Positions 2,390 to 58,502 of a DNA stretch of 64,000 nucleotides are shown in pieces. Location of the stretch: contig OZ001293.3 of NCBI GenBank assembly GCA_963921275.4, forward strand, positions 256,001 to 320,000, given 5' to 3'. Position 1 is the stretch's first letter. Every line of letters starts with the position of its first letter. Below the pieces are notes generated by a model. The model saw only the letters and a list, made by a program, of their open reading frames with translations. It did not search any database and had not been told where the DNA came from. A program made the position numbers and the translations under genes. Origin of the DNA: an uncultured Hormoscilla sp. Lineage in GTDB: Bacteria > Cyanobacteriota > Cyanobacteriia > Cyanobacteriales > Desertifilaceae.

Positions 2390-4880
2390 TCAATTCTCCT
2401 TAAGTACATGCCAAGGAATCATCGGGTCATTGGCCAGATGTTCGGAGACAGCAGCAGCGCCATAACGGTTGAGATGACTGGGGTCAGAGAAATATTTATA
2501 TTGACCGCCATCCCACAAGAGAGTTAGATCTCGGAAGATAAATTCTCTGGGCGCAGTCAGACTCTCCATATGCTGGCGAAATTTTTGCTCGTATTTTCTG
2601 CGCACGGGATCTAAATATTCGGCGGTGAGGGGCAGGTTGACGAAAACAACCGGAATATTGTTAACCTTAGTTAACTTTAGCAGAGAATTGAGAGCTTCCC
2701 CTTGGGTGCTGCCTAGATCGAAAGCTTGATAGTCCTGGTCGTATTGGCCAGGGACTCGGGGATGCTTCTGATAGTAACTATCGGGATCGAAGCGCCAGTC
2801 AAAGAGGAGAAAGCCATCTGGCTCTAAAACCCCTGGAATAGTTAATAGTTCAGGTGCTTCTGGGTCTTTTAAGATATCCCGATCGCCCCCTTTTTCCAGC
2901 ATACTAGAAGGTAGGATCTGCTGAAGCTGTTCGCCCAGAAGCAATTTCAGCCGATCGCGTTGAGGATAGAGGGCCGAGGCAGAACCCAGCATCCGATCGA
3001 ACCAGCGATCAATATCTTTGGGGTAGTGCGAGTAGCGCGTCCCCCAGAGGGGGATATCGAAAACATCTTGATAAGGATTTATCAAAGTCATAATAGTTTC
3101 TTCCGAGTCAGCATAAGTAGGGCGGACCAGAGTTCCAGCTACCAGTTGAGAGTAACCCACGGAAGAAGTAATTACTTTATAGGTCATATCTTTCCGACCG
3201 CTATTAAAAGCCCGGGTGCCATCAGCCCAGAGAATTAACTTAGGCAACTGTTCAGTAGTTAAAATCCGGCGGACGATTAAGTCTACCACTTGGGCCGTAG
3301 CACCATTGACACCAAAATTATAAATACTCACATTTTCATAGCCTTGAGACCTGAGAACTTGGCGGAGCGCCTGTGGATCTATACCCCGCAGCCCCCGGGA
3401 ACTCCCCACAATCAGGACATCAGGGGGACCTGATGCCATTAATAACTGATGATATCGTCCCAGATGTTCGTCTAGCAGCGGGTTGATAAAACTGGGGTAA
3501 GGTGAGACAATCTGAGAGGATACTAAGACGGCCTGACCCTCTTCTTCTTGACCAATTACCGCAGCTGGAAGCAGGATATTCCCCAGTACCAAATCAATTT
3601 GTAAAGTCAGCAGCAATCCCAAAGCCATCCAAACTATTGTACTTAAAAATTCGCTAATTACAATAAACAGTTGCGATCGCCTTTCTCTGGGCACGACCGT
3701 TGCCCTGGACAACTCCATTCTGGGAACAAACAAGCCCGATCGGATCAGAGATTGCTTGATTACCAGCACTAGCTTACCAGAAATGCGGTCTGAAGCCAGG
3801 GACAAATCCAAACTATCCGAGAGCAGCTCTTCTTCTACCTCCGGTGACTCCGGAATCAACTTAGAAGTAGGAGCTGGTGGCACTGGTTGGCGGCGGATAA
3901 AATCAAGGCCATAGTTCCAAGTAGGATACCTTTGACCAGACATGCGCCCATAAACCCTGACCCCAGCAATTTGCGGGATTTTCTGCATGGATGCCTTGAG
4001 GGCGCAAAGATGTCAACAGATCGGCAATCTTGTAGCTGACCAATTTTTGGTCAGGCGTTGTGGGGGCCTGACCGAACAGGTGCAGAGTTGATTCCTTACC
4101 AATCCCAGAAACTGTGACTCCTGAGGACGCTAAACTTGAATTCAGCAGTCGCGCGATCGCGGGCACATCCCCCCATCGTCCCCATGCTCGCAGCATGACT
4201 TCCGAAGGAGTCAGATCCACAATCAGGGTCCAGTTTGCGGTCGCCTCACCCCTAACCAAACTTCTGACGATCGCATCTTGAAAACCCCTTAAATTTAAGT
4301 CTCGCAACTGCCGGGCAATAGTCAGTCCCAGCAAAGACGAGTCCAGACTGTAACTAGAAAAGCAAGAGATATACAGACGCCAGTAAGACCCCGAAGTCTT
4401 GCCAATAGCCTTGCTCTGCACCTTTACCCCCACCCCTAAAGGACTGAAGGTTTCGCTCAAATAACGAGCGATCGCCTGCAGATCTCCCTGGCTGGCCAAA
4501 GTCCAGCTCCATATCAGGGCCCCCTTATCCCTTAGCGATAAATCTGCGGTTTCCCGGTCTAACTGGTCCAGGGCGATCGTCTCCGTCCATTTTGGGTAGC
4601 GCAGACCAACTTGACGACCGTAGACCCGCACCTTGTAGACCGGAGCTTGGTAGGCACTATCCAACCACGTCTCCAGATTAGTCGCGATCTCCGACTTGAG
4701 AGCAGGTAATATCGCCTCTGGATCGGGACAGATAGACGCCTCGCACAGAATATGTAAATCATTCCCCCGCCGACGCACTCTTACTCGTCCCCCCCTCAGG
4801 CCGATCATCTCAGATATCCAAGCTTGTAAGTCCAACCGACTGCCACAGGGACCCTTCTTGATTTTTAACACCATTGTCAA
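2390..4880 (-). pseudogene. DUF1574 / SGNH-like cyanobacterial protein split into two overlapping ORFs
   Basis: C-part has VLIVGSSR, YNFGVNGATAQ and FSDPSHLN motifs; N-part 3903-4880 shifts frame after PQGIHA near 3988. Confidence 0.75.
3011..3061 (-). repeat. 45-nt hairpin element variant (51 nt), in frame in DUF1574
   Basis: TTCGATATC...GCGC-TACTC-GCACTA...GATATT; removal restores in-frame YQDV|DRWF. Confidence 0.75.
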
Positions 4881-4976
4881 TTGTCAGTTGTCAGCGAGTT
4901 GACATAAGCCAAAGCCCACCGGTACGATCGTGATTAAATCTAAATCCACAGTGTCATATCAAGATCTCAGACAATC

Positions 4977-5270
4977 ATGCCAGAGCCATCAAGAACCATA
5001 GCCCAAACCCAGCCATTTACTGCCTCATCCAGCCTAGTTGCGTCCGAAATCTTATTAAGTCTCGCCCTACCGACCGTGCTTTTCAGCTTAGCCTGCGCCC
5101 GTACCCTTGAGGAAACGATCAGAAGTCTCGGCCTCGCCAGCGAAGAAATTTTCCGGGGCGTGAGCCTGCCCCTACTCACCGGCGGACAGCCTGGGAAGGA
5201 AAAACCCAGCAAAAAGTTAACAGCGAACAGACAGGAGTCGCCAACCCACTCTCTGCCCAGATCCCAATAG
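4977..5270 (+). CDS. Conserved small cyanobacterial hypothetical protein
   Basis: Hydrophobic segment followed by LGLASEEIFRG motif. Confidence 0.6.
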   Translation: MPEPSRTIAQTQPFTASSSLVASEILLSLALPTVLFSLACARTLEETIRSLGLASEEIFRGVSLPLLTGGQPGKEKPSKKLTANRQESPTHSLPRSQ

Positions 5271-5620
5271 GATCGGTAGAGGGATATTTTTAGCCAATCG
5301 CTGCCCAAAAGAAAATTATCCCATATAATCATAGATAATTGTACACTACAGAATTCCGACCTCTCCCACTCCGACTTCCGCACTGCGATCATCAAAACTC
5401 CACCGCGCTTCGTGAGGGAAAAATTACCAAACTGTCAGGACAGGAGGTAAAATATTAGCGTAAAAACTGGCAAAAGTTAAGAAAAGACCCGCAAAGCAAT
5501 TGAGAAATGGAAAAAAAGATGAAATTCGGGGCAGAACAGAAGCAGGGGAACTATGAAAAAGATTGAACAGAAGTATAGGTAATCAGATGAATATAATAGT
5601 AGGAGCAGGAAAAAAAACTT

Positions 5621-8600
5621 ATGAATTCAGCAGTCTATAATCAAGAGATTAGCACCGGCATGGAGAAAGTAGCAGCCATCAAGGACAGCGTCGCAGCTAG
5701 AGAATCGGAAGAAATGACAGGGAATTGGAAATCAGAGGTATTGCTGCGCCATCGCCTGAAAGTGGTGGAAAAATTGTGGGAGTCAGTGTTAGAGCAAGAG
5801 TGCGGTCAAAAATTGGTAAACTTGCTGGCATCAATGCGTACCATGAGTTCTCCGGAAGGACAGGCACCGACAAATTTATTCAAGGACGAGGGAAAAATAG
5901 ACTCCCAAGAGCAACATCTGATAGAAAATCTTGACTTCAACGCCGCCATCCGGGCGACGCGAAGTTTTGCCCTTTACTTCCAATTGATAAATATAGTAGA
6001 ACAGCATTACACCCAGCGAGGGCAAGAGCAACAGTATCAGGCAGAAATTGTCAAGGAACTATATAATGAAATAAACTCAGGTAATAGCAGCAAGAAAACC
6101 GGGACAACATCCGAAGGAGAAAAAGCAGGCACGAGTACCTTCGAGGCAAAGCCACTGGAAAAGAGCATATCAGATTCAGTTAGGATGAATTCGATGCACT
6201 CGGGTGAAGAGTCCCTGGGGCGCGCTAAAAGCACTACCCCCGAAACACCTCGCGCTAAAAGCACTACCCCGAATGCATCGAGGCGAGATTTACGCAATTT
6301 TCAGGCACTGTTGCCGAAATTGCAGGAGTTGAACGTGCCACCGGGTAAGATCCAGAATTTGATTGACACATTGGATATCCGGTTAGTATTCACAGCACAT
6401 CCGACAGAAATAGTCCGCCACACGATCCGGGATAAGCAGCGCCGGATCGCGAAAATTTTACAACGCTTGGATGAGTTAGAAGAAGAGACGATCGATCGAT
6501 GTCCCCCGGGTAGTGCATTTAGCGCTCCCGGGGAACAGCGAAGCCCAGATGGCCAGATAGCGGTAATGACATCGGGGAAGACTTGGGAAGCAAAAGAGCT
6601 AGTGGCACAGCTGACAGAAGAAATTCGCTTGTGGTGGCGCACAGATGAGTTACATCAGTTCAAGCCGACAGTCCTAGATGAAGTAGACTATACCCTGCAT
6701 TACTTCCAGGAAGTGCTATTTGACGTGATTCCCCAGCTATATCAAAGGTTTAAGTTGGCATTAGCGGAGACATTTCCTTACCTGGAACCCCCCAAGTATA
6801 ACTTCTGCAAATTTGGATCCTGGGTGGGGTCAGACAGAGATGGCAACCCGTCGGTGACCCCAGAAGTAACCTGGCAAACAGCATCCTATCAGCGGGAGCT
6901 AGTGCTGGACAAATATATTCAGTCCTTGCGGCAATTGATTAACATATTGAGTCTGTCCCAGCATTGGAGCGATGTGTTACCAGAACTGTTGGAGTCCTTG
7001 GAACAAGACCATCAGCGCTTGCCAGAGGTATACGAGCAACTGGCGATTCGCTATCGGCAAGAACCCTATCGCTTAAAGCTCTCTTATATCCTCAAGCGAT
7101 TGGAAAATACCCAAAAACGCAATAGGCAGAAACAGACTCGAACTAGCAGCTTGGGAAAACACACTATCGCGTCACAACCGCCGTCGGAAAAATCAGCTAG
7201 GGAAGAAATCTATAAAAATGCACAAGAGTTTCTAGCGGAGTTGCAGCTGATTGCCCGATCGCTGGGTGAGACAAAATTGAATTGTCGCCAGCTAGAGAAC
7301 CTGATCTGCCAGGTGGAAATACATGGATTCAACTTAGCCCACCTGGATATTCGTCAGGAGAGTTCGCGCCACAGTGCGACTCTGAACGAGGTAGCAGAAT
7401 ACATACAAGCTTTGCCCCGTCCCTACGAGGAACTCTCAGAACAGGAACGAGTGAATTGGTTGGTGAAGGAACTGCAAACCCTCCGACCATTAATCCCCGC
7501 CGAACTGCCTTTCTCAGAAAAAACTAGCGAAACGATAGAAACGGTGCGGATGCTGCGGCAATTGCAAAAGGAGTTTGGCAAGGAAATCTGCCAAACCTAC
7601 ATCATCAGCATGAGCAATGATGTGAGTGACATCCTGGAGGTGTTACTATTAGCGAAGGAAGCAGGCTTGTATGACCCAGCCACAGGCATCAGCAGCATCC
7701 AAGTGGTGCCCCTATTTGAAACGGTGGAAGATTTAAAGAATGCACCAGTAATCATGAGAGATCTGTTCAATCTGCCCTTCTATCTGGCGGCGATCGCAGG
7801 AGGCTATTCAGCATTAAAAGGGGAAAACTCCGTTGTGGTGCAAGAGGTGATGTTGGGCTATTCGGACAGTAATAAGGATTCCGGCTTCTTAAGCAGCAAC
7901 TGGGAAATCCATAAGGCCCAGAAAGCCCTGCAAGATGTGGCAGACGAGTACGGGGTAGCCTTACGGATATTTCACGGGCGCGGCGGTTCTGTAGGTCGGG
8001 GGGGCGGGCCAGCCTACGAGGCAATTCTAGCTCAACCGGGTCGCAGCATCTCGGGGCGGATTAAAATCACGGAACAGGGGGAAGTGTTAGCCTCAAAATA
8101 CTCCTTGCCCCAGTTGGCATTATACAACCTGGAAAATATTGCCTCGGCGGTGGTGCAAGCTAGCTTGCTGGGGAGTGGGTTCGATGATATTGGACCCTGG
8201 AACGAAATTATGGAAGAATTGGCCACAAAGGCCCGATCGCATTACCGGGCCTTGATCTACGAAGAGCCAGATTTTATCGACTTCTTCCATCACATCACGC
8301 CAATTCAAGAAATCAGCCAACTGCAAATCTCATCTCGTCCCGCCCGTCGTAGTGGGGGCGCGAAGAAGGGTTTATCGAGTCTGCGGGCGATCCCCTGGGT
8401 GTTTAGCTGGACTCAAGCCCGCTATCTGCTGCCCAGTTGGTATGGTGTGGGCACGGCCTTGCAAGACTTTTTGCAACAGTCTCCAGAGGGACATTTGAAG
8501 TTACTCAGCTGTTTCTATGATAAATGGCCATTTTTCAAAATGGCGATCTCTAAAGTGGAGATGACCTTGGCAAAGGTGGACATGCAAATTGCTGCATATT

Positions 8601-8938: not shown

Positions 8939-9138
8939 CGCGATCTATTGCTGGGTTCATTGTTTATAGCTATAGTTATGAACAATGAACCATTAACCAT
9001 CGGAACGGCACCCTGTAGAGAAGCTGCGACGTGGCCGGTAGGTGGCGAAGCTCTATATCCGTTGCCCTCACCTAACCGGTACAGACCAGCAGATGAAAAC
9101 GCCCTATTATATTAAATCAGTCCATGAACTTAAATCTC

Positions 9139-10470
<1,332 letters not shown>

Positions 10471-10478
10471 GTCGGAGT

Positions 10479-11058
10479 GTGGGGCAAACTGCCAAAATCC
10501 AGTTGCAGCCAGCCCAGAATGCTGCGGGATATCCCCTGTTGCCCGATGAAAACTCGAAAGTAAGTGCGGAAGATTTCCAGGTGTTGTCAACTTCTGTAGA
10601 CATAGACCTGGATTCACTGCCGATCGTGAAAAAAGTGCTGGAAACAGGAGAACCACTCAGGGGTGTAGAGTGCGAATACGATGTCTCTCGGGTAGTGCGG
10701 TTAGCGCTCTCGGGAGACATCGAGCGACCGAGGGACACAGCCCGCCCAGGGTTTCAGGCGCTAAAATCATTACTTGTGACTCACTACCGAAAAACTGACC
10801 TTCCGACGTTCTTCTCCGAAGAATCCGGGAATTTTTGATATTTTGACCCGCAGCATGGTGATTTCCAGCGTCCGGAAATTAGCGTCAATCAGGCAAGAGA
10901 TCGATCTGCTGCTGGAACCGCCAGTCACGCAATTCGGCAGGACGCAGTTTGACGCGATGGATAAAATGATGCAAATAGGGTATGACTATGCGTATCCTTT
11001 GTTAAAGGAGTTTAAAGAGAACGATCTATGCGATGAGCGGCTCATACATTTATTCTGA
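10479..11058 (+). pseudogene. Fragments, the last resembling a patatin/NTE-like phospholipase C-terminus
   Basis: DLLLEPPVTQFGRTQFDAMDKMMQIGYDYA; broken frame; no N-terminus. Confidence 0.5.
10680..10724 (-). repeat. 45-nt hairpin element
   Basis: + strand GATGTCTCTCGGGTAGTGCGGTTAGCGCTCTCGGGAGACATCGAG. Confidence 0.85.
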
Positions 11059-11620: not shown

Positions 11621-11746
11621 GAATTGTAAATTGAGAATTGTAAATTGAGAATTATTTATACTCCCAAAGGGATCGACTTGCGCTTAAAGGCAATTGAATG
11701 ACATTACTGCCCTCTTAACCGCAGTTTATGACCGTTTGGAGTATAT

Positions 11747-13987
11747 GTGCGATTCGTTTAGTGTAAACCACCGGCGATCCTGCTGGCGGGGGACCACTAG
11801 CAGGGTTTCATTAGCCCTGACAACTTACAGATGATGGTGGTGAAAGTCCACCCCTCCAGGTGCAGGAGTGACAGCACTTCCCCTACGGTAGAGATGGCAT
11901 CAATCCGTGAAGCGGGGATGAAAGGCGCTCTAACTGGCAGCCTACACCGGTTATCGCCGAGCAAGTAGCCATGATGAGCATAAAGCGAAGGTTTGCAGCG
12001 TCGTGACGAACAACCAGTGAAATAAGGCTGACACACTGGCCCAAAAGGGAAAGGATAATGGTCACTGGCGGATATATTCCTGACCAGTAAGCACTGACAA
12101 TAAACCCGGCGTAAGGAACCCATCTAAAGTTACAAATAATCATCGGTAGGAACGAAGTAAACCAGGTATACACTCTCTACCACCGGTCGATAGGTAAAGT
12201 AGCCACCAAAGGCGTAACCTCTGTTTTCATCAGACAGGTCATACCTGGGAAAGATTTCGTGGAGAAGCAAACGCCTGCCCGTAATGAGCAGGATACGCTG
12301 ACGCCCTCACGGTAATGTCAAATGTCAAGCGGTGAGTAGCAAATGATACGTCATAGGCACGGCACTGAGCCGATGAATGAATGGAAGGATATCCCCTGGC
12401 GAAAGCTAGAGCGGGTAGTCTTTAAGCTGCAAAAGCGGATTTACAGAGCGGCACAACGTGGCGATAAGCGAATGGTTCGCAGACTCCAGAGGTTATTGGC
12501 AAGCTCCCAGGCCGCAAAAAAGCTAGCGGTACGTCAGGTAACACAAGATAACCAGGGAAAGAAGACCGCCGGTGTGGACGGTGTGAAAGCACTGACCCCA
12601 AAGCAACGATTGGAACTGGTAGGACAAATAGGAATCTTGGGAAGGGCAAAACCCGCACGACGGGTATGGATACCTAAACCAGGAAGAACAGAAAAACGTC
12701 CATTGGGAATACCAACGATACACGACCGCGCGACACAAGGGCTGCTGAAGATAGTACTAGAGCCCGAATGGGAAGCATACTTTGAGTGCAACTCATACGG
12801 ATTCAGGCCAGGGAGAGGATGCCACGACGCGATCGAAGCAATAATCACCAGCATCAACCAAAAACCCAAATGGGTATTAGATGCGGACATTGCGAAATGC
12901 TTCGATAGAATCAACCACAGAGCGCTAATGGAAAAACTGAATACAACATCACCAATCCGTAAACAAATACGGGCATGGCTAAAAGCCGGAGTGATAGACA
13001 AAGGATACTGGCACCCCACTGATGAGGGCACCCCCCAAGGTGGAGTGATATCGCCATTACTGGCCAACATAGCCTTACACGGGCTTGAGGAAAGGATAAT
13101 GGAAATGGCAAAAACACAAAGAGAAAAGCAAAGGTTGACAGTAGTCAGATATGCAGATGACTTTGTGGTAATGCACAACGACAAGGAAAAGGTGGAAGAA
13201 GCGCAAAAGGTTGTAGCGGAGTGGTTAAAGGGGGTTGGACTAGAGCTAAAACCAGAAAAAACCCGAATAAGTCATACGCTATACGGAGAAAAACTGGGGT
13301 TCGATTTCCTGGGAATCAACGTAAGACAATATGAGGTAAGTAAAAACAGAAGCGGGAAAAATCCACACGGTAAAGCCCTAGGTTTCAAAACCTTGACAAG
13401 GCCAAGTGACAAGTCCATAAAGAAGCATAAAGAAAGGCTGTCGGAAGTGATAGCCAGCCATAAAGCGGCACCCCAAGAAGCGCTAATAGGAAAGCTCAAC
13501 CCAATAATACGGGGATGGGCGAATTACTTCAGAACGGGGGCAAGCAAGGAGACCTACTCCGAAATGGACAACTACTTATGGAACACCCTATGGCAGTGGG
13601 CAAAAAGAAGACACCCGAACAAATCCGGGAACTGGATAGCCAAAAAGTACTGGTTGAACAACCAAGCGAAAGAATGGCGATTCGGGAACGGAGAAATCAA
13701 ACTAATGAAACACACAAGTGTGAAAATAGTAAGACATGTAAAGGTGAAAGGAAAAGCGAGCCCATACGACGGGAACCTCACATACTGGAGTACCAGACTA
13801 GGCAGAAACCCAGAAATACCTAACAGAGTGGCAAAGTTGCTCAAAAGGCAAAAGGGAAAATGCCAGCAATGCGGGCTTACATTTAAGGACGGAGACAAGT
13901 GGGAAGTTGACCATGTCAAACCTCTAACACTAGGAGGCAAAGACCAATACGACAACCTACAACTACTACACAAACATTGCCACAACC
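11747..13987 (+). mobile_element. ORF-containing group II intron lacking DV/DVI (3' truncated)
   Basis: GTGCG start; putative EBS1 ATATAT (12072-77) pairs with upstream GTATAT; RT ORF follows; abrupt junction to ribokinase sequence. Confidence 0.9.
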
Positions 13988-14007
13988 GGCAGTGCTGTTA
14001 CAGTTAG
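12343..14007 (+). CDS. ltrA: Group II intron reverse transcriptase/maturase with HNH endonuclease; last residues replaced by fusion
   Basis: RPLGIPTIHDR, SYGFRPGR, GTPQGGVISPLLANI, RYADD, domain X RGWANYF, CQQC...DHV...NLQLLHKHCH. Confidence 0.95.
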   Translation: MIRHRHGTEPMNEWKDIPWRKLERVVFKLQKRIYRAAQRGDKRMVRRLQRLLASSQAAKKLAVRQVTQDNQGKKTAGVDGVKALTPKQRLELVGQIGILGRAKPARRVWIPKPGRTEKRPLGIPTIHDRATQGLLKIVLEPEWEAYFECNSYGFRPGRGCHDAIEAIITSINQKPKWVLDADIAKCFDRINHRALMEKLNTTSPIRKQIRAWLKAGVIDKGYWHPTDEGTPQGGVISPLLANIALHGLEERIMEMAKTQREKQRLTVVRYADDFVVMHNDKEKVEEAQKVVAEWLKGVGLELKPEKTRISHTLYGEKLGFDFLGINVRQYEVSKNRSGKNPHGKALGFKTLTRPSDKSIKKHKERLSEVIASHKAAPQEALIGKLNPIIRGWANYFRTGASKETYSEMDNYLWNTLWQWAKRRHPNKSGNWIAKKYWLNNQAKEWRFGNGEIKLMKHTSVKIVRHVKVKGKASPYDGNLTYWSTRLGRNPEIPNRVAKLLKRQKGKCQQCGLTFKDGDKWEVDHVKPLTLGGKDQYDNLQLLHKHCHNRQCCYS

Positions 14008-14357: not shown

Positions 14358-14413
14358 TTCGATATCTCTGCTCCTTGCTCTTGTCCCAGGGGACTCGGCA
14401 CACAGGAGACATC
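14358..14413 (+). repeat. 56-nt hairpin micro-element
   Basis: TTCGATATCTCTGCTCC...CAGGAGACATC; other copies at 46010 and 56331. Confidence 0.85.
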
Positions 14414-14452
14414 GCAGGAAGGTTGCCACGCTGCGCTCGCGAGCGACAATTG

Positions 14453-22043: not shown

Positions 22044-23000
22044 TTAATTAGACTGGCAAATTTTTTTGGCAAGTTGGACGTGCAGCTGATGGCTGGCTTT
22101 GTAGGCCAGGTAATGAGCCACGGGAATGGTGAGTAGTAAACTCATATCCCCTACTAAGTCTAATAGTTTATGACGCACTGGTTCATTGGCAAATCGCAAA
22201 GGCGGATTCAGCCACCCGTCGGCACCACAAACTAAGGCATTATCCAGAGTACCACCTTTGATTAAGCCTTGATCGCGCAGCTGCTGGATTTGATCTGCCA
22301 AACCAAAAGTCCTCGCCGGTGCAATTTCGGTAGCAAAGTCCTCTGAGACTGGTTCCCAGCTGTGCCACTGATTGCCAATGGCTGGCGGTGAGAAGTCAAT
22401 TCCATAGGTGAAACGAGTTTTGCTAGCTGGTATGGCACAGACAAAGGCGTCACCCCGCTGCACCCAAACTGGTTCTGTGATTTTGGTAATGGAACGATTT
22501 GGTTCTCCTTCCCGATGTACTCTGCACGCGCTATATCTGCGCACGCTCCGGGAACCCTCCGCTGCACATCGGTCACACATATCTGCCTGGGAACGTACTT
22601 TTGCCTTGCCCGCGCGCAGCGTGCGCGCAGCGCATAGCGCCTCTACCCATTCAGCTGCGGAACCATCCAGTAGGGGCAGTTCTGGGCCGTCAATCTCAAT
22701 TCGGGCATCATGCACGCCCAGGGCTACCAGTGCAGCTAAGAGATGTTCGACCGTCCGCACGCGCGCATCTTTCCATCCCAGTTCAGTAGACAGGCTTGTG
22801 GAAACTACTGCCTCTACCCGGGCAGGTATTACCGGTGCTCCAGGCAGGTCAACCCGCACAAAATAGCGCCCCTCTCCTACTGCTGCTGGTAGCACCTTGA
22901 CCTTAGTGAGGACGCCAGTATGCAGTCCCACTCCCGACTTTTCCATCATCATTGCTAATTGCTCATAGTTAAAGGAGAATAGCAATCGACTATTCACCAT
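22044..23000 (-). CDS. lpxC: UDP-3-O-acyl-GlcNAc deacetylase with in-frame repeat insertions (start uncertain)
   Basis: [39 protein letters not shown]. Confidence 0.96.
22511..22570 (+). repeat. 45-nt-family variant (60 nt) in frame in lpxC
   Basis: CCCGATGTAC...GCACATC then G; removal keeps the frame (CD|QGEP). Confidence 0.6.
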
Positions 23001-23049
23001 TAACAATTCTCCCAACAACTAACCACTGACAACTAACCACTGACCACGC

Positions 23050-23137
23050 GATGTGCGATTAATGTGCTCCGCGCAGTGCGAATAGCACGCGCAGAGCACA
23101 TTAAGCAGTGCGAATAGCACGTGCAGAGCACATCGCT
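23050..23137 (-). repeat. Nested pair of 45-nt-family variants (intergenic)
   Basis: Core CAGTGCGAATAGCAC twice; inner unit 23061-23105 is 45 nt with arms AATGTGCTC/GAGCACATT. Confidence 0.75.
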
Positions 23138-23178: not shown

Positions 23179-25224
23179 TCAGAATCTTTCTCCGATGCCA
23201 AAGTGGAGGCGGTTACCCCCGTCGGTACTGAAGCCAAAGTCTACCCGAATTGGTCCTAAAGGAGACTGAATGCGCACCCCGAGACCGATGCCAGCACCAG
23301 TACCTGGCAGGTCTCGAATCTCTGATGGTTCCCCCGGAACGTTACCGCCAGAGCCCAGGTTGCTGCCCACATCCAAGAATAGGGCCCCACCGACGACGGA
23401 GAAGATGGGAAAGCGATATTCGGCTGTGCCTTGGATAAAATAGCGACCGCTGCCTAAATCCCCTTCTGCAAAGCCTCGCACGGAATTACTACCCCCCAGA
23501 ACAAAGGCTTCGTAGGGGGGTAAATCCCCGATGACGGCTCCAGCTTGGAAGTTAAAAGCTAGGGCTTGGGGTCCTTCGGAGAAGTTGGTAAACTTAACGG
23601 GGATGTAGTAGCTATGGCTAGCCCGGAGGCGATTGAGAAAGATATTGCCCAAGCCTATCGGGACCGATTGTTCCATGCTCAACCTGGTCAGAGAACCGCT
23701 AGTGGGCTGAATATTGTCATTGCGCCGATCGCGCACCACCCCCAATTGCAGCAGCACCAGGTCATCCTTGCCATCCTCGCTGAAGGATAAGAGTTCCCCG
23801 TCTTCGCTTTCGGGCTCTAGATCGCCGTCCCGATCGCGAATGGAAACCCGTTGATACTGCAACCCTAAGGATCCGCGCCACTCAGAGTTAAGGGGATCGG
23901 GACCCAGGGGACGGGTAAAGCTGATTCCTCCTCCTAACCGCAGCACTCGGGGGCGATCGCCATTATCCAGTTCGATCTCATTTTTCTCTCCATCAAACAC
24001 CAGGGATATGGACTGGCGTCGGAACAGATTTGCCGTATAAGAGGTGCGATTCTTGTCTCCTGCGATCCAGGGGTCTGTAAAGCTGAGGTCGAACAGCAAC
24101 TCCCGGGTGCCTACCTGGGCCTCGGCCCGCAAGTTCTGGTTATTTCCCCCCAGGTTGTTCTCCTGATAGCTGACCGAACCAAACAACCCGCTAGCAGAAC
24201 TAATCCCTGCACCTGCCGCGATCGATCCTGTATTCCCCTCCTGCACGTTTAGCACCACCACTACCTTGGAGGGGTCAACTCCGGGATTTAATTCGATCAA
24301 CACATCTTCAAAAATCCCTAAACCAAACACCCGCTGTAAATCCGCCTCCACCCGATCGCTATTAAACAGTTTTCCCGGCTCTAGTTGCAACTCCCGAGTG
24401 ATAATAAATTCCCGCGTCTTGCCCGCGATCGGTTGGCCCTCTTCATCAGTAGCTTCTCCATCTTGGTTCAGGAAACGGATTTGGATATCTTCTATCACCC
24501 CTTCTGTTACGATCAGGGTGACCGTACCATCAGCTGCCACCTGGGGAGAGCCAATTACCTGAGCCAAAACATAACCCTGGTCTTGATATCTTTGGTTTAA
24601 GCTTTCGATCCCTTCCTGTAGCTGTCCCAGATTCAATATCGAACCGTATTGAGAGCTAAAAATCTCCTCAACTACCTCTGGTCCCAGCACCGACGGCACT
24701 TCACCTTGATTTGCGGCCACTCGCACTTGTCTGAGCACGGGGTTAGGTTGCACTACAAAAGTCACCTGCACACCCAAGGGGGTATCTTTTGGTATTGCTT
24801 GCACCTTGGCAAAAAATCCTGTAGCAAAGATAACGTTAATATCTGCTTGTAGCTGGCTGCGGGTGGTGGTCCGTCCCGGTCGAGTGCTAATTACCTGGTA
24901 TACTTCATCTTCCAGTTCCCCTTGTACCCCCCGTACTGCTAATTCTGCCACTAGGACTCGCGGTTCTGCTTGTCCTTCAGCAGGTCTTTGCCCCACTTTC
25001 CCGTCTGGGAACGACAACAATGCTGTGGCCTCGATGTCTCCGGAGTAGTGCGAGTAGCGCTCTCCGAAGACATCGAAACGGTCGGAAGCACTAAAGTGCT
25101 TACTACGAACCTTGACAGTTAAATCCTGCTCGGGGGTTTGTCCCCAGGCGTCGGAGTTTACGCCACCGTACCCTACTGTAGCTGAGGCAGTAACTATTGC
25201 TAATAATAAGGGAGAAAAGCGCAT
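23179..25224 (-). CDS. bamA: BamA/Omp85 outer membrane assembly factor
   Basis: POTRA-like N-terminus, SVRGF motif, C-terminal HFGIGERF. Confidence 0.95.
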   Translation of the reverse strand: MRFSPLLLAIVTASATVGYGGVNSDAWGQTPEQDLTVKVRSKHFSASDRFDVFGERYSHYSGDIEATALLSFPDGKVGQRPAEGQAEPRVLVAELAVRGVQGELEDEVYQVISTRPGRTTTRSQLQADINVIFATGFFAKVQAIPKDTPLGVQVTFVVQPNPVLRQVRVAANQGEVPSVLGPEVVEEIFSSQYGSILNLGQLQEGIESLNQRYQDQGYVLAQVIGSPQVAADGTVTLIVTEGVIEDIQIRFLNQDGEATDEEGQPIAGKTREFIITRELQLEPGKLFNSDRVEADLQRVFGLGIFEDVLIELNPGVDPSKVVVVLNVQEGNTGSIAAGAGISSASGLFGSVSYQENNLGGNNQNLRAEAQVGTRELLFDLSFTDPWIAGDKNRTSYTANLFRRQSISLVFDGEKNEIELDNGDRPRVLRLGGGISFTRPLGPDPLNSEWRGSLGLQYQRVSIRDRDGDLEPESEDGELLSFSEDGKDDLVLLQLGVVRDRRNDNIQPTSGSLTRLSMEQSVPIGLGNIFLNRLRASHSYYIPVKFTNFSEGPQALAFNFQAGAVIGDLPPYEAFVLGGSNSVRGFAEGDLGSGRYFIQGTAEYRFPIFSVVGGALFLDVGSNLGSGGNVPGEPSEIRDLPGTGAGIGLGVRIQSPLGPIRVDFGFSTDGGNRLHFGIGERF
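25033..25077 (-). repeat. 45-nt hairpin element in frame in bamA
   Basis: TTCGATGTCTTCGGAGAGCGCTACTCGCACTACTCCGGAGACATC encodes FDVFGERYSHYSGDI. Confidence 0.9.
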
Positions 25225-26051: not shown

Positions 26052-26120
26052 GGTTGGTGGGTATGAGTGAGGTTCTCCCTTATTTTGCTACAATTATTAG
26101 CTGCCACAAAATTAAGAGTC

Positions 26121-26165
26121 GATGTCCCCCGGGTAGTGCGAGTAGAGCTCCCGGGGGACATCGAA
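26121..26165 (-). repeat. 45-nt hairpin element in the ilvC 5' region
   Basis: Arms GATGTCCCCCGGG/CCCGGGGGACATC around TAGTGCGAGTAGAGCT. Confidence 0.9.
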
Positions 26166-28176: not shown

Positions 28177-28315
28177 GATATGTCTCCGCGATGTGCATCG
28201 CACATCGGGAGCAGTGCGAGTATGATGTCTTGGGGTTAGTGCGCCTATCGCGTAGCGTGGCGCAGCCATGGGCGTCCCCCTCTGGGAGGACATCAAGCTC
28301 TCCGGAGACATCGAA
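28177..28315 (-). repeat. Multiply nested 45-nt-family / small dispersed repeat composite
   Basis: Outer TTCGATGTCTCCGGAGAG, inner CTTGATGTC...AAGACATC carrying a GCGTAGCGTGGCGCAGCCA repeat. Confidence 0.65.
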
Positions 28316-28420
28316 AGCTTTGACGATTTTGCGCGAAATGCGCGATCGGGGTGTAGTCTGAGATGGAGGGGCATCGGACGATTATGCTTACTTGGTAACC
28401 ACAGACCCGAAAGATTCTCC

Positions 28421-38873: not shown

Positions 38874-38946
38874 GCGCTCTTAGTTCAGCTGGTAGAACGC
38901 AGGTCTCCAAAACCTGATGTCGGGGGTTCAAATCCTCCAGGGCGCG
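38874..38946 (+). tRNA. trnW: tRNA-Trp (CCA)
   Basis: Acceptor GCGCTCT/AGGGCGC, anticodon arm CAGGT-CTCCAAA-ACCTG, T loop GTTCAAATC; usual position before secE. Confidence 0.97.
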
Positions 38947-38957: not shown

Positions 38958-39002
38958 TTCGGTATCTCCTGGGAGCGCATATCGCACTACCCAGGAGACA
39001 CC
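38958..39002 (+). repeat. 45-nt hairpin element
   Basis: TTCGGTATCTCCTGGGAGCGCATATCGCACTACCCAGGAGACACC. Confidence 0.85.
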
Positions 39003-42217: not shown

Positions 42218-42622
42218 ATGTCTGCTGCAACTGAAGAAATTCTGGAAAAACTCAAGGGCTTAAGCTTGCTGGAAGCTTCTGAATTGGTCAAGCAAATTGA
42301 GGAAGCTTTTGGCGTCAGCGCCGCCGCACCTGCTGGTGGTGGCATGATGATGATGGCTCCTGGTGCTGCTAGTGCTGCTGCTGCTCCCGCTGAGGAAGTG
42401 GAAGAGCAAACCGAGTTTGATGTGGTGCTCGAAGAATTCACAGCTGATAAGAAGATTGCCGTCCTGAAGGTGGTACGGGCCCTCACCGGTCTGGGTCTGA
42501 AGGAAGCTAAGGATTTGGTAGAGGGAGCACCGAAGGCCATTAAGGAGGCGATCGCGAAGGATGCGGCTGAGGATGCTAAGAAGCAACTGGAATCGGCTGG
42601 TGCTAAGGTCAGCGTGAAGTAA
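42218..42622 (+). CDS. rplL: 50S ribosomal protein L7/L12
   Basis: [29 protein letters not shown]. Confidence 0.99.
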
Positions 42623-42874: not shown

Positions 42875-42919
42875 AATGTCTCCGGAGTAGTGCGAGTAGC
42901 GCTCTCCGGAGACATCGAA
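42875..42919 (-). repeat. 45-nt hairpin element
   Basis: Arms TGTCTCCGGAG/CTCCGGAGACA around TAGTGCGAGTAGCGCT. Confidence 0.9.
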
Positions 42920-43422: not shown

Positions 43423-44625
43423 GGCACTGGTTCCGGTAAATGTAGTGAGCAGAAGTATTGCTATATAGGGATTAAAGGCGATAATATATTTCAAAGATGA
43501 TATGTCAAAGTGCCAGACCCATGAAAGCGCTCTTAACCCAAAGATGTCCTTGTTGCGAGAGGGAAGAAGTTCATGCTCACCACCAGTATATAACTAAAAA
43601 TAACGGCTCACGAACCATTTACTATTGCCTGGAGTGCGACATCTATTTCAGTGAGACATTTGCAACCCCCCTAGCAGGACTTCCGACACCATTAAGTCGG
43701 GTCATAGAGATTCATCCAGCCAGAAGTGAAGGGATGAGCCTCAAGGGAACAGCGCGTACCTTCTTAGTCTCAAAGAAAAGTATAATTGACTGGGAAAGCC
43801 CCTTGGGGAACATCAAACCAACGAGGATGCTCTATAGCCTACTCCATCAATTTATTGAACTTGAGATTGAAGGAGATAAACTGTATACCAAAGTTGAAAA
43901 AACCAGCTCCCTAGTCTCAGTGAAGGGTGGACGATAGTGCTCATGGAGCGAGCCAGTCGATTATGCACGGAATTGCACTGTGGTCGTAAAGACCAGCAGA
44001 TGGAGAGAGAAAGCTCTCAATTGGTAGAGGTGATTGCCCAAAGGGACAATCTCACCTTGTTCACAGATGGAGAAAGACGTTATTCTTATGGACTCTTTGG
44101 CATCTGTCATGAGGTGATCCGTAACGGCAAACCCGGTCGTCCCTCCAAGGGCTTACCCAAAGAGATACGAGTGGGTTTGAAAAATAAAGGTTCGCTCCTT
44201 AATCGGGGTCGAAAACGCAAAAAGTTTGAAGCTCCCGTTGGTGAGCATCCTCAAACAGACTCATTGATTCCATCCGCTCAGATTCATGCCAATCACGTGG
44301 CGATGCGCGAGGGGTAGTGCGAGTAGAGCGCTCCCCGAGTGCATCGACGAGGCATTTAATGCTTCCCCTCCTCGACGCAACAGTGCTTTTCGGCGCCGAA
44401 CGAGTACCTATGCAAAATCTTGCAAACATCTACAGAGAACCCTGGATGTATTCTGGGTCATCCACAATAAGTTACGAGTGCATTTCACGACAAAAGCTGT
44501 GATGGCTGTGAAGTTAGGCATTTTTGAAGCCAGTCTATCTTGGTCTCAAGTCTTTAGGATTCGATCTGCTTTATAATCCCCTATATATAAGAGATACATC
44601 CCTCACAGGCAACGGAACCAGTACC
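43423..44625 (+). mobile_element. Degenerate IS1-family element
   Basis: TIR GGCACTGGTTCCG/CGGAACCAGTACC; TSD GAAAAACG; Zn-ribbon plus HTH, IEGDKLYT, FTDGERRY, RRRNSAFRRR. Confidence 0.88.
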
Positions 44626-48539: not shown

Positions 48540-49790
48540 CCTCATGTCCCAAGAGAACTTTAAGCGCATAGTCATTATCTAGTGCAGCGTATGAGGGTTT
48601 CATTGCAATACTCTGTTTTGAAGGTTGCAAGCTTCGAGTAAATTGATACATAATCGCCGCCATTGTCCCATATTCTGAGGACCATTTCCGGTTCTAATCT
48701 GCGTCGAGTCTTCTTTAAACGTTACATCTAAGATCCAATGAAGACTATTTTCAACCCCCCAATGAGAGCGAATCGCTTTCGCCAAAACAGTGGCATCTGC
48801 TTGTAGACTCGTGATGTAGAAACATATTTCGGTGGTTCGCTTATTCCACAGTTGACCTTGCCGTTTTACCATTACCACCGTAGCCAAACCCTTCCATTTC
48901 GACTGTTAAATTCAGTATTTTGTCTATGGATACCGCCCATACAAACGCGATGTTCAATACGATGATGTCCCTGTAGTCTCACTATAACTATAGTCAACCC
49001 CTTGCCAAGGTTTGCACCTGTTGAAAAAATGCCGACACTTCTTTGTAGAGATTCTCTTGATTGCCCTTGAGGGCAAGAATATATTCCCCCTTTTGGTCAA
49101 TTATTTGGGCGGCAATTTTTCTTGGTGTTCCCATAGCATCTAGGGTGATGATCGCTCCAGTTATATCTATTAGCTGCAGCAACTCGGAAATAGCTATAAT
49201 TTCATTCGATTTCTTTGCGACAATTTGTTGAGCTAACACAGCTGTGTCCCCCGGGTAGTGCGAGTAGCGCCCTGGGTCTCCTGGGTAGTGCTTTTAGCGC
49301 TCCCAGGAGACCCAGCACCGGGGGACACAGCGGCCCAGGCACTAACGGTATGCAAGGCTTTCAATCCCTTCTCCCGGTCATAAGAACCCCGTGCAGTTTT
49401 ACCATCGATACTGATCACATTGATATCGAGTTTGGAACTCAAATGCTTGCTCCAAGCCAAAAAACACTCGTGCAATTGCTGCGGGTCTCCCATGGCCAAG
49501 ACCCTGGAAAAGGTATCGTGAGAAGGGATACCGTGAGGCAACTCGCGCAAAGGTCTCTAACCCTCCTGGGAAGCGTTTGCCATAGGTCTCTATCGCCACC
49601 ATGTTGTCAGCGCCACATAAAATTGCCAGTATCGCTCCGGGTCACTATATCAATCAGTAAATGCTCGGCGTTTAACTCTGGGGTCATCTAATGCTTCAAA
49701 CTCTTTTAGTACGCTCTTTTTTAAATTTTTTAGCTTGTTAAAAGGAAGGGGTTTACTAACATATCCAAATCCTTTTGACATAATTTTTGA
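48540..49790 (-). mobile_element. ISAs1-family transposase pseudogene
   Basis: GIPSHDTFSRV, ISIDGKT, KSNEI, LDAMG, LALKGNQ, RSHWGVENSLHWILDV. Confidence 0.93.
49243..49332 (-). repeat. Two nested 45-nt hairpin elements (90 nt) inside ISAs1
   Basis: Outer arms TGTGTCCCCCGG/CCGGGGGACACA, inner arms TGGGTCTCCTGGG/CCCAGGAGACCCA. Confidence 0.88.
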
Positions 49791-49953
49791 CTTTACTCAA
49801 GTGTCCCTACTCTGCTCGACATCAGTTGACAAGGGGTGTGGTCAAAAGTAGTTGATAGAGTAGAGGAGAAAAGCTGTCCCCTTGGGTCAATTATGATAAT
49901 CATTATCATTCTCTTTTACCAAGGAGAACTTTGGTTCACAATCCATGCATGTA

Positions 49954-50082
49954 AGCAGGTGGGCGTAAATCAACTGGCCTCTGTTAAGAAATGTCTTATC
50001 GCGCCCATCTACTTCTGGAAGAAGCTTGAGCGCCAACTTAACAAAACTTTACTGCCGTTGAGTTGACTTATGCACACCTACT
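49954..50082. mobile_element. Small MITE flanked by TA
   Basis: Imperfect TIR AGCAGGTGGGCGTAAATCAACT / AGTTGACTTATGCACACCTACT. Confidence 0.65.
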
Positions 50083-53990: not shown

Positions 53991-54150
53991 TCAATTACTC
54001 TGTTGGGGTGAGAAATCCTTTGCTGTATGTCAGAGTAGCTATGTCACTTTCCCCTACCTAATCTTGACTACATCCAATTATCTCGGCATTCCGCATGTTA
54101 GTTCGGGTAAAACGCATCTAAATCAGCCTTTCCCAGTAAGCATTCTGTAA

Positions 54151-56826
54151 CTGGACAGTGCTTATTTATTTAGACGTATTCCATTAGAAATATAAAGATA
54201 AAAAGGAACAGAGGTAGGACAAAAAAACATTCCCGCAGGCGACGCCGCAGGAATGCTCTATACTGGTATAATTATTGATAATCAACCAGTATAAATTGAT
54301 TATGTCTATTCTATATCTCGTAGAGCAAATATTAAGCGAGCTACGAAAGCGTCTTTAGTAGGCAAGCGGCAAATGAGATGGTTCGTGCTGCTGATGTGGG
54401 GTGTTTTACTATGTTCAATGGCTCCAGCCGTGACAAGTTATTTGAACGCTGTCGGCCTGAGTGAATACTACTACCATCAAGCCAAACAGCTGGTTTCACT
54501 CACAGGCGTGGAGCGTGGTAAAGTTATCACAGACTTGGCAACAATGCTTGAGCAAGCATCCCAATTTACATCGGCTAAAGGGGAAACCAGTGTATGTGGG
54601 AGATGGCATCAAAATCAACAAGGAAGGACGGAAGATGCCAGCAGTTAAAACGCTGCACCAAGAGTCAGACAATACAAACAAAGCCGACTGGATTCGAGGC
54701 AGTGCGATTCGTTCCGGCATAAGCCAGTAGGTGAAAGTCGGGTCTGGCTCTATCAGCCAGATAACTCTGGTTATCATGGGGGTTAAATTCCCTTTCCCCA
54801 GGTACGGGGGTCGAGGGTACTACCGGTCGGAGGTGCTACGGAGCCACATCGCCGTGGTGCCTCCCGAGGACTTAAATGTAGGATAACTGGCAGCCTAAGC
54901 CGGTGACGCCGCTAGGAAAGATGCTAATGGTTAGAACAAGCGAACCTATGTAAACCTCGTTAACCAGAACCAGCGGAAGAAGGCTTATGCGCTTGCCCAA
55001 AAAGGGAAATGGTAGTTAGTATTAGCTCTTGCCTCTGGCTAATAACGTACTCAAAGAACTCCCGGGGTATAGTAGGAACCTAAAAGCATCGTGAAATGAT
55101 ACTAGGGAACGAAGTAACCTCTCGTGAGCTGTCCCCATTTGGACAAGTTAGATGTAAAGCGCAAGCCACGAAGAAGAAGGATGTCCTAAGAAGCTAACGC
55201 CCAGGGTAATGCCTGTGGATATGCAGACGTAGGACGGATATGGTAAGACACCCTTGGGAAAAGTAACCTTAATGTCACAGAACTAGGGAGAAATTCCGAA
55301 AGTACGAATTTTGGATTCAAATCTTAGCCAGGTAAAGTTCAGAGCCCTTACGAAAAGCGGAAAGCAGAATGGGGAAGATGTTAGTAAAGAGCGGCGAGTA
55401 TGGTTTGCTGAACTATCCTCCGCGAACCTTCCGCAGCTCAGTACTTAAACGGTCCAATAGGATTGACCATAAGGGGTAAAATTTCAAAGGGTAAGGGACA
55501 ACGGGGGTAACCCCCAGTAATCCTACTGATGACAACAGCTTACCAACCAGTAGCCGTGTGCGGTTCCAGTCGCTCTTCAGGTTTCGCTCTTGGAGGGTTG
55601 GGGAGTGATTCCCAGCTCGACCCCGACCATTACGAAGGGATGCTTATCTCTCCTATTGGGAGCGGCTGATGCTTTGGAAGCTGTGCCCATAGTTTTACGA
55701 ATCCATTCCGGGATTACAGCAGCACGAAGCACGAAGCACAGACAATTACCCTCGTAGATCGGATGGCCGCCAGTGCGCTTAGCCACCGAAGGTAGCTACG
55801 TTGTACTGGATGCGTTCTTTGCTGCCGGGAGCTTGATTGCCAAGTTCCGTGAAAACCAGTTACACCTGATTAGTCGTGTGCGGATCGCTTGCCGTTGGTA
55901 AACAGCCCTTGCCACCTCCTCCACCCAAGCGAGGACGCGGGAAACCACGCATATGGGGAGAGCTCCTACAGTTACGAAATCTGTTTACTGATACCTCGGA
56001 CTTTATCAGTTCCACAGTAGCACTCTACGGAAAGCAAGTAACAGTGAGCTACCGCAAAGCGTGACTTACATTATCGAAGTCCACAGCATTTAGTGCGGTT
56101 TGTATAGACTGTGCTACCCTGTGGTAAGCAAATGATTCTTCGATGTGCTCGAAGAGCGTGCTCCTAGCGCGAGCACATCGAATGTCAAAAGATATCACTC
56201 TATCCGGCATGGCTGCGCCCCCAGCGCAGCGCTATCGGAAGTTATTGAAGCTTATGGATGGCGGTTCTTTCTTGAGGTAACTTTCCGTACACTCCCAAAC
56301 GTTATTATGGGGTTTCAGCTATCGTTTCTGTTCGATATCTTTGCTCCTTGCTCTTGTCCCAGGGGACTCGGCACACAGGAGACATCGATGAAAAGTTTTC
56401 CCCCTACTCCACGGTGGCCTAAAAATATTATCCTCGATCAGTTCCCTGTAGAGGAGCGCCCACTTCTCAATCGTAAGATTGTCGCTATGGAGCGTTTTGT
56501 GAACCTTAACGCTGTGGGCTATGGCTGCGCCACGCTGCGCGATGGGAATTTGACAATTGCTAAGTGTGGAAATGTCAGTAGACAGAGGCGCGAGGTTTTC
56601 CCCATTGGTGGAGCACTCTGCCCAAACATGGCAACCCCACAGCAACTTATTGTCCGTCTTACTCTTCAAGATAGAGCTCGACATATTGAGCGTGAAATGT
56701 AGACCCGGCTTACTTTTGACTAAATTCATTTCTCTGCGGCCCCGACGAGTAGCAAAGCCTTTAACAGAGAGGATTGTCTGTTAACTTTCCTCGGCGCAAT
56801 CTCAGCTAGAACTTTTGACTGTCCAG
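54151..56826 (+). mobile_element. Degenerate IS (IS4/IS701-like DDE) interrupted by a group II intron
   Basis: Short TIR CTGGACAGT/ACTGTCCAG; VGDGIK..KEGRKMPAVKTLHQES, YVVLDAFF, IEAYGWRFFLEVTFR. Confidence 0.7.
54702..55627 (+). mobile_element. ORF-less group II intron with degenerate DV
   Basis: GTGCG start, ...GACCCCGAC end; DI homologous to 9385-9900; putative EBS1 TGCCTC pairs with upstream GAGGCA. Confidence 0.88.
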
Positions 56827-56990
56827 TTCGGTTATAATCGTTATGTTATTTCCGCCGTGCCCCGGCCAGATGAAAATGCAACTGATTTGTGCCCTGACCA
56901 CATGCTATAGACCTGTTGTCGGGATGGGAGCAGCCCATCTGACTAGATTGGCGATAAACTAAAAGGGGCGTGATGCAAGGCAGAGATTTT

Positions 56991-58502
56991 ATGGCAGTCC
57001 ACTCACAAAATCCAATCGAATTCGGCACCGATGGCTGGCGAGGCGTAATTGCCGCAGATTTCACATTCGATCGGGTAGCATTAGTCGCGCCCATAGCCGC
57101 TCAAGTGCTAGCCCAAGTTTATGGTGACACCGTCCCTAACAACACCGTTATCGTCGGTCACGACCGGCGCTTCATGGCCGAAGACTTTGCTCGCACGGCA
57201 GCTGAGGCAATTGCAGCGGCGGGGTTTGATGTCCTATTGACTGAGACCTATGCCCCCACGCCGGCTTTTAGCTGGGCCGCTAAGGAAAATAATGCCTTGG
57301 GGGCGATCGTCATCACGGCTTCTCACAATCCTGGAACATATTTGGGCTTAAAAGTCAAGGGGGCTTTTGGCGGATCGGTTCCCCCAGAAGTAACTAAACA
57401 GATTGAAGCTCGGTTGCACGAAGAACCACCAGTAGTTGCTCGACCTGGAACGATCGCCAAGTTCAATCCCTGGTCCAGTTACTGCGAAGTGCTAAAGTCA
57501 AAAGTAGACATTGGATTGCTCGAATCTGCCATTACGGAGGGGAAACTAACGGTGTTTGCGGATGTGATGCATGGTGCAGCTGCCGGTGGGCTAAGCCAGA
57601 TAATCGGGGCGCCAATTCGGGAAATAAATAGCGATCGGGATCCGCTGTTCGGTGGCGGTGCGCCGGAACCTCTACCCCGTTACCTGTCTGGGTTGTTTAG
57701 CTTGATGCAAAATCACGAGCGTGCGGTGTCTCCTGGGAGCGCTGCATGCGCTGCGCGCACGCAGCGCGATCGCACTACCCAGGAGACACCGCACGGAGAC
57801 TTAGTAGTAGGATTAGTATTTGATGGAGATTGCGATCGCATCGCTGCTGTAGATGGGCAAGGAAACTTTCTCAGTTCCCAGTTTTTAATCCCTATCCTCA
57901 TCGGACACCTAGCAGCAAGAAGGAGATTTACCGGGGAAGTAATCAAAACTATCAGCGGTTCTGACTTGATTCCCCGGGTAGCGAGTCTCTACGATCTGCC
58001 AGTACATGAGACAGCAATTGGTTTCAAATATATCGCCGATCGCATGTTATCAACCCAAGTCTTAATTGGCGGTGAAGAGTCTGGGGGCATAGGCTATAGC
58101 ACTCATATTCCCGAACGAGACGCCCTGTTGTCGGCCCTGTATGTGCTAGAAGCAGTCGGACAATCGGGTGAAGATTTGAGCGCTCTTTATCGCCAATTGC
58201 AGCAGGAAACGGGTTATACTTCCGCCTATGACCGGATTGACTTGCCTCTGGCCAGTATGGAAGTGCGATCGCGCATCTTTGCCCAACTGCAAGCCAACCC
58301 CTTAACGGAAATTGCAGGTAAATCTGTGGTAGATTGTAACGGAGTGGATGGCTACAAATTTCGCTTAGTAGATGGCAGCTGGCTGCTAGTACGCTTCAGT
58401 GGCACCGAACCCTTGCTGCGGTTATACTGTGAAGCAGCTACCCTCCCACAGGTACACCAAACTTTAGAATGGGCAAAAGTGTGGGTAAATTCGATCGGAT
58501 AA
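56991..58502 (+). CDS. Phosphoglucomutase/phosphomannomutase family protein
   Basis: FGTDGWRG, TASHNP, FDGDCDR, GGEESGG, RFSGTEP. Confidence 0.96.
   Translation: MAVHSQNPIEFGTDGWRGVIAADFTFDRVALVAPIAAQVLAQVYGDTVPNNTVIVGHDRRFMAEDFARTAAEAIAAAGFDVLLTETYAPTPAFSWAAKENNALGAIVITASHNPGTYLGLKVKGAFGGSVPPEVTKQIEARLHEEPPVVARPGTIAKFNPWSSYCEVLKSKVDIGLLESAITEGKLTVFADVMHGAAAGGLSQIIGAPIREINSDRDPLFGGGAPEPLPRYLSGLFSLMQNHERAVSPGSAACAARTQRDRTTQETPHGDLVVGLVFDGDCDRIAAVDGQGNFLSSQFLIPILIGHLAARRRFTGEVIKTISGSDLIPRVASLYDLPVHETAIGFKYIADRMLSTQVLIGGEESGGIGYSTHIPERDALLSALYVLEAVGQSGEDLSALYRQLQQETGYTSAYDRIDLPLASMEVRSRIFAQLQANPLTEIAGKSVVDCNGVDGYKFRLVDGSWLLVRFSGTEPLLRLYCEAATLPQVHQTLEWAKVWVNSIG
57722..57790 (+). repeat. 45-nt hairpin element with a 24-nt repeat in its loop (69 nt), in frame in the PGM/PMM gene
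   Basis: Arms GGTGTCTCCTGGG/CCCAGGAGACACC; removal gives in-frame HER|HGDL. Confidence 0.85.

Follow-up and report, generated by a model that had tools for sequence, protein, structure and literature searches.

A genus-restricted 45-nt hairpin element in the cyanobacterium Hormoscilla that nests in itself and inserts without target duplication

Introduction

Small dispersed repeats (SDRs) of the Nostocaceae, SDR1-8, were reportedly described by Elhai et al. in 2008 as dispersed sequences of 21-27 nt that carry compensatory changes, nest in themselves and move by an unknown mechanism. For these cyanobacterial elements it is an open question how repeats can spread that are far too short to code for a transposase or to recruit one in any obvious way. 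Here, we describe a hairpin element of 45 nt in a stretch of 64,000 nt ("the window", G000:C1:256001-320000) from the 7.03-Mb genome of an uncultured Hormoscilla sp. (G000; completeness 96.7%). The unit is mobile, nests in itself and inserts without target duplication, and its family is genus-restricted, non-autonomous, selfish and recently active. An initial annotation of the window had proposed a mobile unit longer than SDRs that needs a trans-acting enzyme; both parts of this proposal are supported, the first by a net gain of 45 nt at filled sites.

SDRs are reported not to occur outside the Nostocaceae (PMC5861425; articles are cited here, in excerpt, by PMC number), and larger palindromic elements, of about 105-146 nt, are known from Rickettsia (PMC3184786). 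Sponge symbiosis is attributed to Hormoscilla (PMC6520454), and sponge metagenomes contain DNA related to the window. The words transposase, intron, pseudogene and mobile do not occur in the main text of PMC6520454, and our literature search found no description of the 45-nt family; subscription papers and supplements lay outside its scope, and the Elhai supplements may bear on novelty.

Results

The unit consists of a 43-nt core followed by two 3' bases and typically ends in G-N-A. The core comprises a 13-bp stem, a bulged T, a 5-bp stem with a T·G pair and a 5-nt loop closed by G·A (135 of 163 independent copies) or T-A (19); the folding strand reads GTAGTGCG. The T·G pair is present in 262 of 268 unique copies, and the bulged base is T in 247 and C in 21. 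The initial annotation had drawn the hairpin on the opposite strand, AGCGC…GCACT with a bulged A. This strand has a C·A mismatch, and the T·G strand folds lower in 93% (as DNA) and 96% (as RNA) of the 163 copies, so that the assignment had to be reversed. The covariation claimed for the stem was confirmed: among 37 distinct copies, two-sided changes occur in 76 cells, where shuffling gave 22.1 ± 4.5 (0/500). The count of covarying pairs is a weaker signal (11 against 8.2 shuffled; 22/500), and the invariance of the inner core in alignment A1 is in part an effect of sampling, as the core pattern was used to choose 33 of its 40 rows. Subfamilies with mismatched arms recur at many sites, so the arms are passed on with the element rather than copied anew at every insertion.

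G occupies position 43 in 95% of the copies, and 99 of 163 end in G-N-A. When a unit with this end is folded as a circle, it forms a complete dumbbell closed by a 3-nt loop. Core lengths peak at 43 and 40. Of five other mini-element families that were examined in G000, four also have G-N-A triloops (180, 66, 86 and 14 copies); the exception is the 42a family (29 copies). The stability of such loops in DNA far exceeds that in RNA, and they are nuclease-resistant (PMC13037366).

On contig C1, 306 copies, of which 268 are unique, form 10 or more of the 14 flanking pairs, and about 300 intact copies are present genome-wide. Among 318 core matches in G000, 184 have at least 10 of 13 flanking pairs, whereas block-shuffled DNA gave none in 47 with at least 7, so the excess of hairpins is above chance. 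The core is present in all four Hormoscilla congeners (G001-G004; 21-57 exact copies each) and its exact form in none of 36 other relatives. A looser core gave 255 copies in G000 against 0-1 per genome in 400 other genomes of the phylum, which is the chance level and no different from the control. No match to a covariance model was found among 120 other genomes of the order under strict filters with 50 candidates scored per genome. Of 74 matches listed from a core scan of 185,579 genomes, 70 were from Hormoscilla; the remaining four lack the stem. In Rfam, the element sites of the window matched no family, and a search with eight loci yielded nothing but sub-threshold hits to hairpin families.

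To assess mobility, we compared G000 with some 2 Mb from G002 and G004 (less than one third of G004 and less than one fifth of G002), plus a small number of loci from G001 and G003. The size distribution of the indels has peaks at 15, 18, 21-24 and 45 nt. Automatic clustering, with paralogous hosts and self-nests included, gave 66 filled/empty pairs. The expectation of clean, exact orthologue junctions held in part: the net gain is exactly 45 nt in 43 pairs and deviates by 1-2 nt in the other 23, namely +43 (11 pairs, mostly one composite family), +44, +46 and +47. None of the 43 has a target duplication, as the initial annotation had stated. At the joint, two bases combine donor and target: the target dinucleotide is retained on the left in 16 of the 43 pairs and on the right in seven, its first base is altered toward pairing with the 3' end of the element in 13, and seven are of other kinds; of the 43 target bases, 32 are C. 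At 3011, 6190, 6498 and 26121 the most distant congener has an empty site, which makes these four insertions gains and fixes their polarity.

The 13 altered bases could be explained by a process that requires no mobility, since polymerase template switching perfects inverted repeats; palindromes would then arise locally or be conserved regulatory hairpins. However, hundreds of unrelated sites share one core, the mismatched-arm subfamilies are inherited intact, and there are empty orthologues as well as nested and strain-specific copies. As the main origin, this explanation is refuted, and we regard it as very improbable.

The target has a well-defined signal. AT is found at −10/−9 in 81 of 163 independent non-nested sites, against 6.7% expected (p ~1e-50); it is sharp in register and confined to the left side, with no mirror image on the right. 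C is at −1 in 96% of the sites, and G follows the joint in 56%. The usual insertion is thus after a C 8 nt downstream of AT, before a G and on one defined strand. A sister family of 42 nt with the same arms uses the same target (A at −10 in 90%, T at −9 in 75%; n=20). The smaller families, which measure 15, 22 and 24 nt, have 66-184 copies each and consist of hairpins with G-N-A triloops, insert at a contiguous CGA-type target and are without a distal signal. The left arm of the element itself contains the target signal, which explains one class of self-nesting. The target logo does not correspond to HIP1, the cyanobacterial octamer that is abundant in G000; the single HIP1 target noticed was cut after base 2.

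Both junctions and target bear on a double-strand exchange with a 2-bp overlap, catalyzed by a serine (IS607) or IS110 recombinase on an extruded cruciform. Forty-seven donor bases replace two target bases, and the outcomes with target left, target right or donor on both sides resemble heteroduplex junctions. The genome also has five near-identical IS607-like serine recombinase/TnpB elements (L125-L129) and four IS110 matches. But the signal at the target lies on one side, good folding is limited to one strand, the left end of IS607 is unlike the hairpin and a duplex circle of 45 bp is physically implausible. We consider this exchange improbable.

According to home-made gene calls that cover 64% of the contig, 60 of the 163 independent copies (about a third) lie within open reading frames (ORFs). 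Whole shells have lengths divisible by three in 57 of 61 cases within long ORFs and in 119 of 197 between genes; without exact 42- and 45-mers the values are 24/28 and 31/109. Since composites of other lengths obey the rule of three in ORFs and not between genes, it is purifying selection that keeps the frame, the unit being 45 nt long by coincidence. In-frame copies had been claimed for ppc, bamA, lpxC and pgm, and they are indeed found in ppc and lpxC as well as in an Omp85/BamA-family gene and a phosphohexomutase gene; their in-frame lengths are due to this selection, however. One Ser/Thr/Pro-rich frame is used by 31 of the 60 copies, where target and stop codons would predict 13 (p 1e-7). 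The inserts in ppc lie in segments that are variable among relatives. Judged by the sequences, the copies inside genes read as tolerance filtered by selection: selfish DNA would add short linkers to housekeeping enzymes of a sponge-associated cyanobacterium.

In 45 of the 60 coding copies the AGCGC strand is the sense strand. Such a bias fits target-primed reverse transcription, in which the reverse transcriptase of a group II intron would prime on a nick ending in C, pairing with the 3' G of an AGCGC-strand RNA, and thereby produce a well-folded cDNA hairpin. G000 has 93 RVT_1 matches, and exact motifs of intron domain 5 (D5) number 288 in G000, 36-41 in three congeners and 0-2 in sister genera. 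Template switching fits the ragged ends and the overlap of 1-2 nt. Moreover, the core of the element contains the 5' letters of the intron, GTGCGA, and three of 442 introns start directly after an element core; this resemblance was noticed post hoc. On the other hand, there is no orientation bias between co-directional genes (29 against 20, p 0.25), the target logos of the introns differ from that of the element, DNA-type triloops recur across families, and G001 has 21 element cores but only two D5 matches, in a fragmented assembly. Nor does the element appear to be a group II derivative: Rfam gave no D5 or D6 match at element sites, and element and distal target positions do not covary as pairing of exon- and intron-binding sites (EBS-IBS) would demand. 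In this test of target pairing guided by the element, only position −2 rose above the shuffled maximum. The ragged, mixed junctions together with the large intron load keep the reverse-transcription route under consideration, but we hold it to be unlikely.

The group II introns have themselves undergone a very large expansion in G000 (331 D5 matches; window 9137-10218 and 11746-14007). Two of their families, about 850 nt long and with 159 and 92 starts, apparently lack an ORF and have clear IBS logos.

Enzyme genes that might act in trans had been expected to co-occur with the element. Matches to Y1 transposases, RVT_1 and serine recombinases are present, but none is tied to it. The Y1 genes deserve attention in view of repetitive extragenic palindromes (REPs) and their paired form, REPINs, which are moved by REP-associated tyrosine transposases (RAYTs): the element shares with them a GTAG motif, a bulged hairpin and insertion without duplication, and Y1 genes occur in all five congeners. 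But GTAG lies within the stem and not at its foot, and element junctions are C|G and not C|T or C|A (PMC8266576). None of the Y1 genes inspected (2/2 in G000 and 4/18 of the congener matches) is flanked by the element, and Y1 genes are equally common in sister genera that are without it. Movement by a resident RAYT is, in our view, about as improbable as the recombinase exchange. The two Y1 loci of G000 (L123 and L124) are subclass 1.2-like and subclass 2.8-like, the latter apparently frameshifted, and each is flanked by its own repeat arrays; of a third, subclass-2.1-like Y1, only a fragment survives in G000.

Fourteen loci in the window had been assigned to one architecture. Hairpin sequence is present at all of them, and 12 score E <= 0.0015 with a covariance model built from 40 copies, seven of which are window copies and match by construction; 22511 gave no match, and 28177 scored E of at least 0.39. 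The six simple 45-nt copies and the two 90-nt nests were as described. Two of these are in ppc. At 6190..6279 (−), a 90-nt nest, one copy within another, is cleanly absent (−90) from G004; the site is filled in G002 and empty in G001 and G003 as well. At 6498..6542 (+), a 45-nt copy scores 60.8 bits; G001 is empty, and G002-G004 hold differing further mini-inserts. In the ppc of G002 (L001), a 23-nt nested insert at this site disrupts the frame, and the insert is 24 nt in G003; the former may be an assembly error.

The copy at 26121..26165 (+), upstream of ilvC, is present among the five congeners only in G000 and is preceded by a typical target signal (26111..26120, +), with AT at −10/−9 and C at −1. 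Two related runs, X5 and X7, skip exactly 45 nt here, and contigs of two same-strain runs hold the inserts at 22511 and 26121 unaltered. The 45-nt copy at 25033..25077 (+) is in the variable N-terminal part of the Omp85/BamA-family gene (−); G003 and G004 are without it, and G002 is filled and carries further nested sequence. Further 45-nt copies are found at 10680..10724 (+), in a gene fragment and inside the loop of an outer copy that has decayed, at 38958..39002 (−), 11 nt downstream of a tRNA gene (38874-38946), and at 42875..42919 (+), intergenic and downstream of ORF 42218-42622. The second 90-nt nest, at 49243..49332 (+) with its inner copy at 49273-49317, is in an ISAs1 transposase fragment. 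In the phosphohexomutase gene, the loop of a 45-nt copy holds a 24-nt mini-element of another family (57722..57790, −; 69 nt in total, in frame); the insert falls in the 234-275 gap relative to the solved structure 1tuo.

Variants are a 51-nt form with extra right-arm bases at 3011..3061 (+), in frame within ORF 2390-3988 (−), which has a covariance-model E of 5e-4, is missing in G001 and filled in G002 and G004; an 88-nt intergenic nest of a variant subfamily at 23049..23135 (+); and a 47-nt form with mismatched arms and two extra bases at 44302..44348 (+). The lpxC copy at 22511..22572 (strand not assigned) is not the clean copy that had been supposed but a shell of outer arms with other mini-elements inside it. 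It sits in the inter-domain linker, an insertion hotspot, and within the 109-148 gap relative to a solved LpxC. Each congener has a different stack of nested mini-elements in this linker (window 22490-22640; L017, L018, L019 and L021), in frame wherever the protein was translated. Runs X1 and X2 have 11 nt extra at 22611 relative to the window. The locus at 28177..28320, also without assigned strand, is a decayed composite of several mini-elements with only weak covariance-model matches (E 0.39-0.5). Two unstranded loci were added to the original list: a shortened family member at 56140..56181 (E 0.012) and an outer-arm shell with other content at 14359..14415 (E 0.076). Elsewhere in the assembly, contig C3 (31 kb, 17.6% GC) is unlike the remainder.

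Discussion

The G-N-A dumbbell, the recurrence of DNA-stable loops and the fixed spacing of AT favor a unit of folded single-stranded DNA and, for its joining, a nicking enzyme of fixed geometry that acts in trans, and we put the chances of this reading at about even. The moving form would be this folded DNA strand, probably closed into a dumbbell by a triloop that the 3' G-N-A forms on being joined to the first G. A nicking and joining enzyme, possibly of HUH-like transesterase chemistry, would bind AT, cut at a fixed distance from it and join the unit in; a short overlap between donor and target would then settle the two joint bases and give rise to mixed ends.

Several observations weigh against folded single-stranded DNA and such an enzyme. 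G-N-A is found at only 61% of the ends, and the junctions, with 16 left, 13 changed, 7 right, 7 other and 23 non-+45 outcomes, are less exact than in classical HUH transposition. No strand bias relative to GC skew was seen, in a genome whose skew is nearly flat and whose origin was not located. Targeted searches tied no candidate mobilizer gene to the element; proteins were clustered for this purpose and no whole-proteome Pfam screen was made. The two Y1 genes of G000 were rejected as cognate mobilizers because they are flanked by their own repeats and not by the element. No tyrosine recombinase (PF00589) was found in G000, although all 14 control genomes have one, nor was a telomere resolvase (ResT/TelK), Ku or Cas1. 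A search for IS91 Y2 proteins gave no match even in its controls and carries no weight here. Finally, neither a free intermediate nor, beyond chance-like short matches in the genome and the compared loci, a circle joint or tandem dimer was observed.

It is tempting to speculate, more tentatively, that the repeats are footprints of a so far undescribed class of minimal single-stranded DNA dumbbell circles of 15-45 nt with DNA-type G-N-A caps, inserted by an enzyme that would read a distal AT, cut at a fixed distance and carry out an exchange with an overlap of two bases. The SDRs of Nostoc would be explained by the same chemistry. The family is well suited to tests of such questions: its ends and its folding strand are defined, its target motif has been quantified, filled and empty sites are available in 66 pairs, some insertions are strain-specific, and a joint of the circle is predicted. 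As for uses, an enzyme able to insert a hairpin of 45 nt without duplication, whatever its stem sequence, would be a candidate tool for small in-frame insertions.

How does the element compare with known systems? Like miniature inverted-repeat transposable elements (MITEs), it has inverted arms and is non-coding and non-autonomous (PMC3733652, PMC3184786), but it makes no target duplication, is shorter than 70 nt and has arms that covary and are not conserved. No likeness to the ends of an autonomous insertion sequence was seen at the IS607 left end or the Y1 flanks, the only ends inspected. In-frame palindromic inserts in housekeeping proteins of a host-associated bacterium are a feature shared with the Rickettsia palindromic elements (PMC3184786). 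Compared with these, the present element is a third of the size, nests in itself and has a defined target motif.

IS200/IS605 elements have two structured ends, a contiguous target of 4-5 nt, exact junctions and a preference for the lagging strand. In contrast, the element has one hairpin and no contiguous 4-5 nt target, its junctions are not always exact, and no replication-strand bias was seen, the GC skew being nearly flat. Common to it and these peel-and-paste elements with their non-autonomous derivatives (PMC6006769) are the lack of duplication, a target signal 5' of the joint and a plausible single-stranded DNA circle. In REP/REPIN-RAYT systems, too, a single strand with a bulge and a GTAG motif folds, and insertion is strand-specific and without duplication (PMC3116915, PMC8266576, PMC6006769, PMC3733652). 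However, GTAG in the element spans an internal bulge and is not at the 5' foot, and the base after the joint is G in more than half of the sites. Moreover, the element has a distal target signal, about a third of its copies are in ORFs, and it flanks no inspected tnpA.

Closest are the SDRs, which are reportedly also dispersed, self-nesting and marked by compensatory changes. The element differs from them in its length of 45 nt (42 nt in the sister family) against a reported 21-27 nt, a comparison of lengths and not of the SDR1-8 sequences. G000 also holds elements of SDR size, 22-24 nt, some of them in HIP1-like sites. SDRs are described as confined to the Nostocaceae (PMC5861425), whereas the element is found in Hormoscilla, and SDR5 inserts between bases 3 and 4 of HIP1 (PMC4390886), whereas the target of the element is AT-N7-C|G. 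The element is of the SDR kind but longer, it belongs to another lineage, and its mechanism is unproven yet testable.

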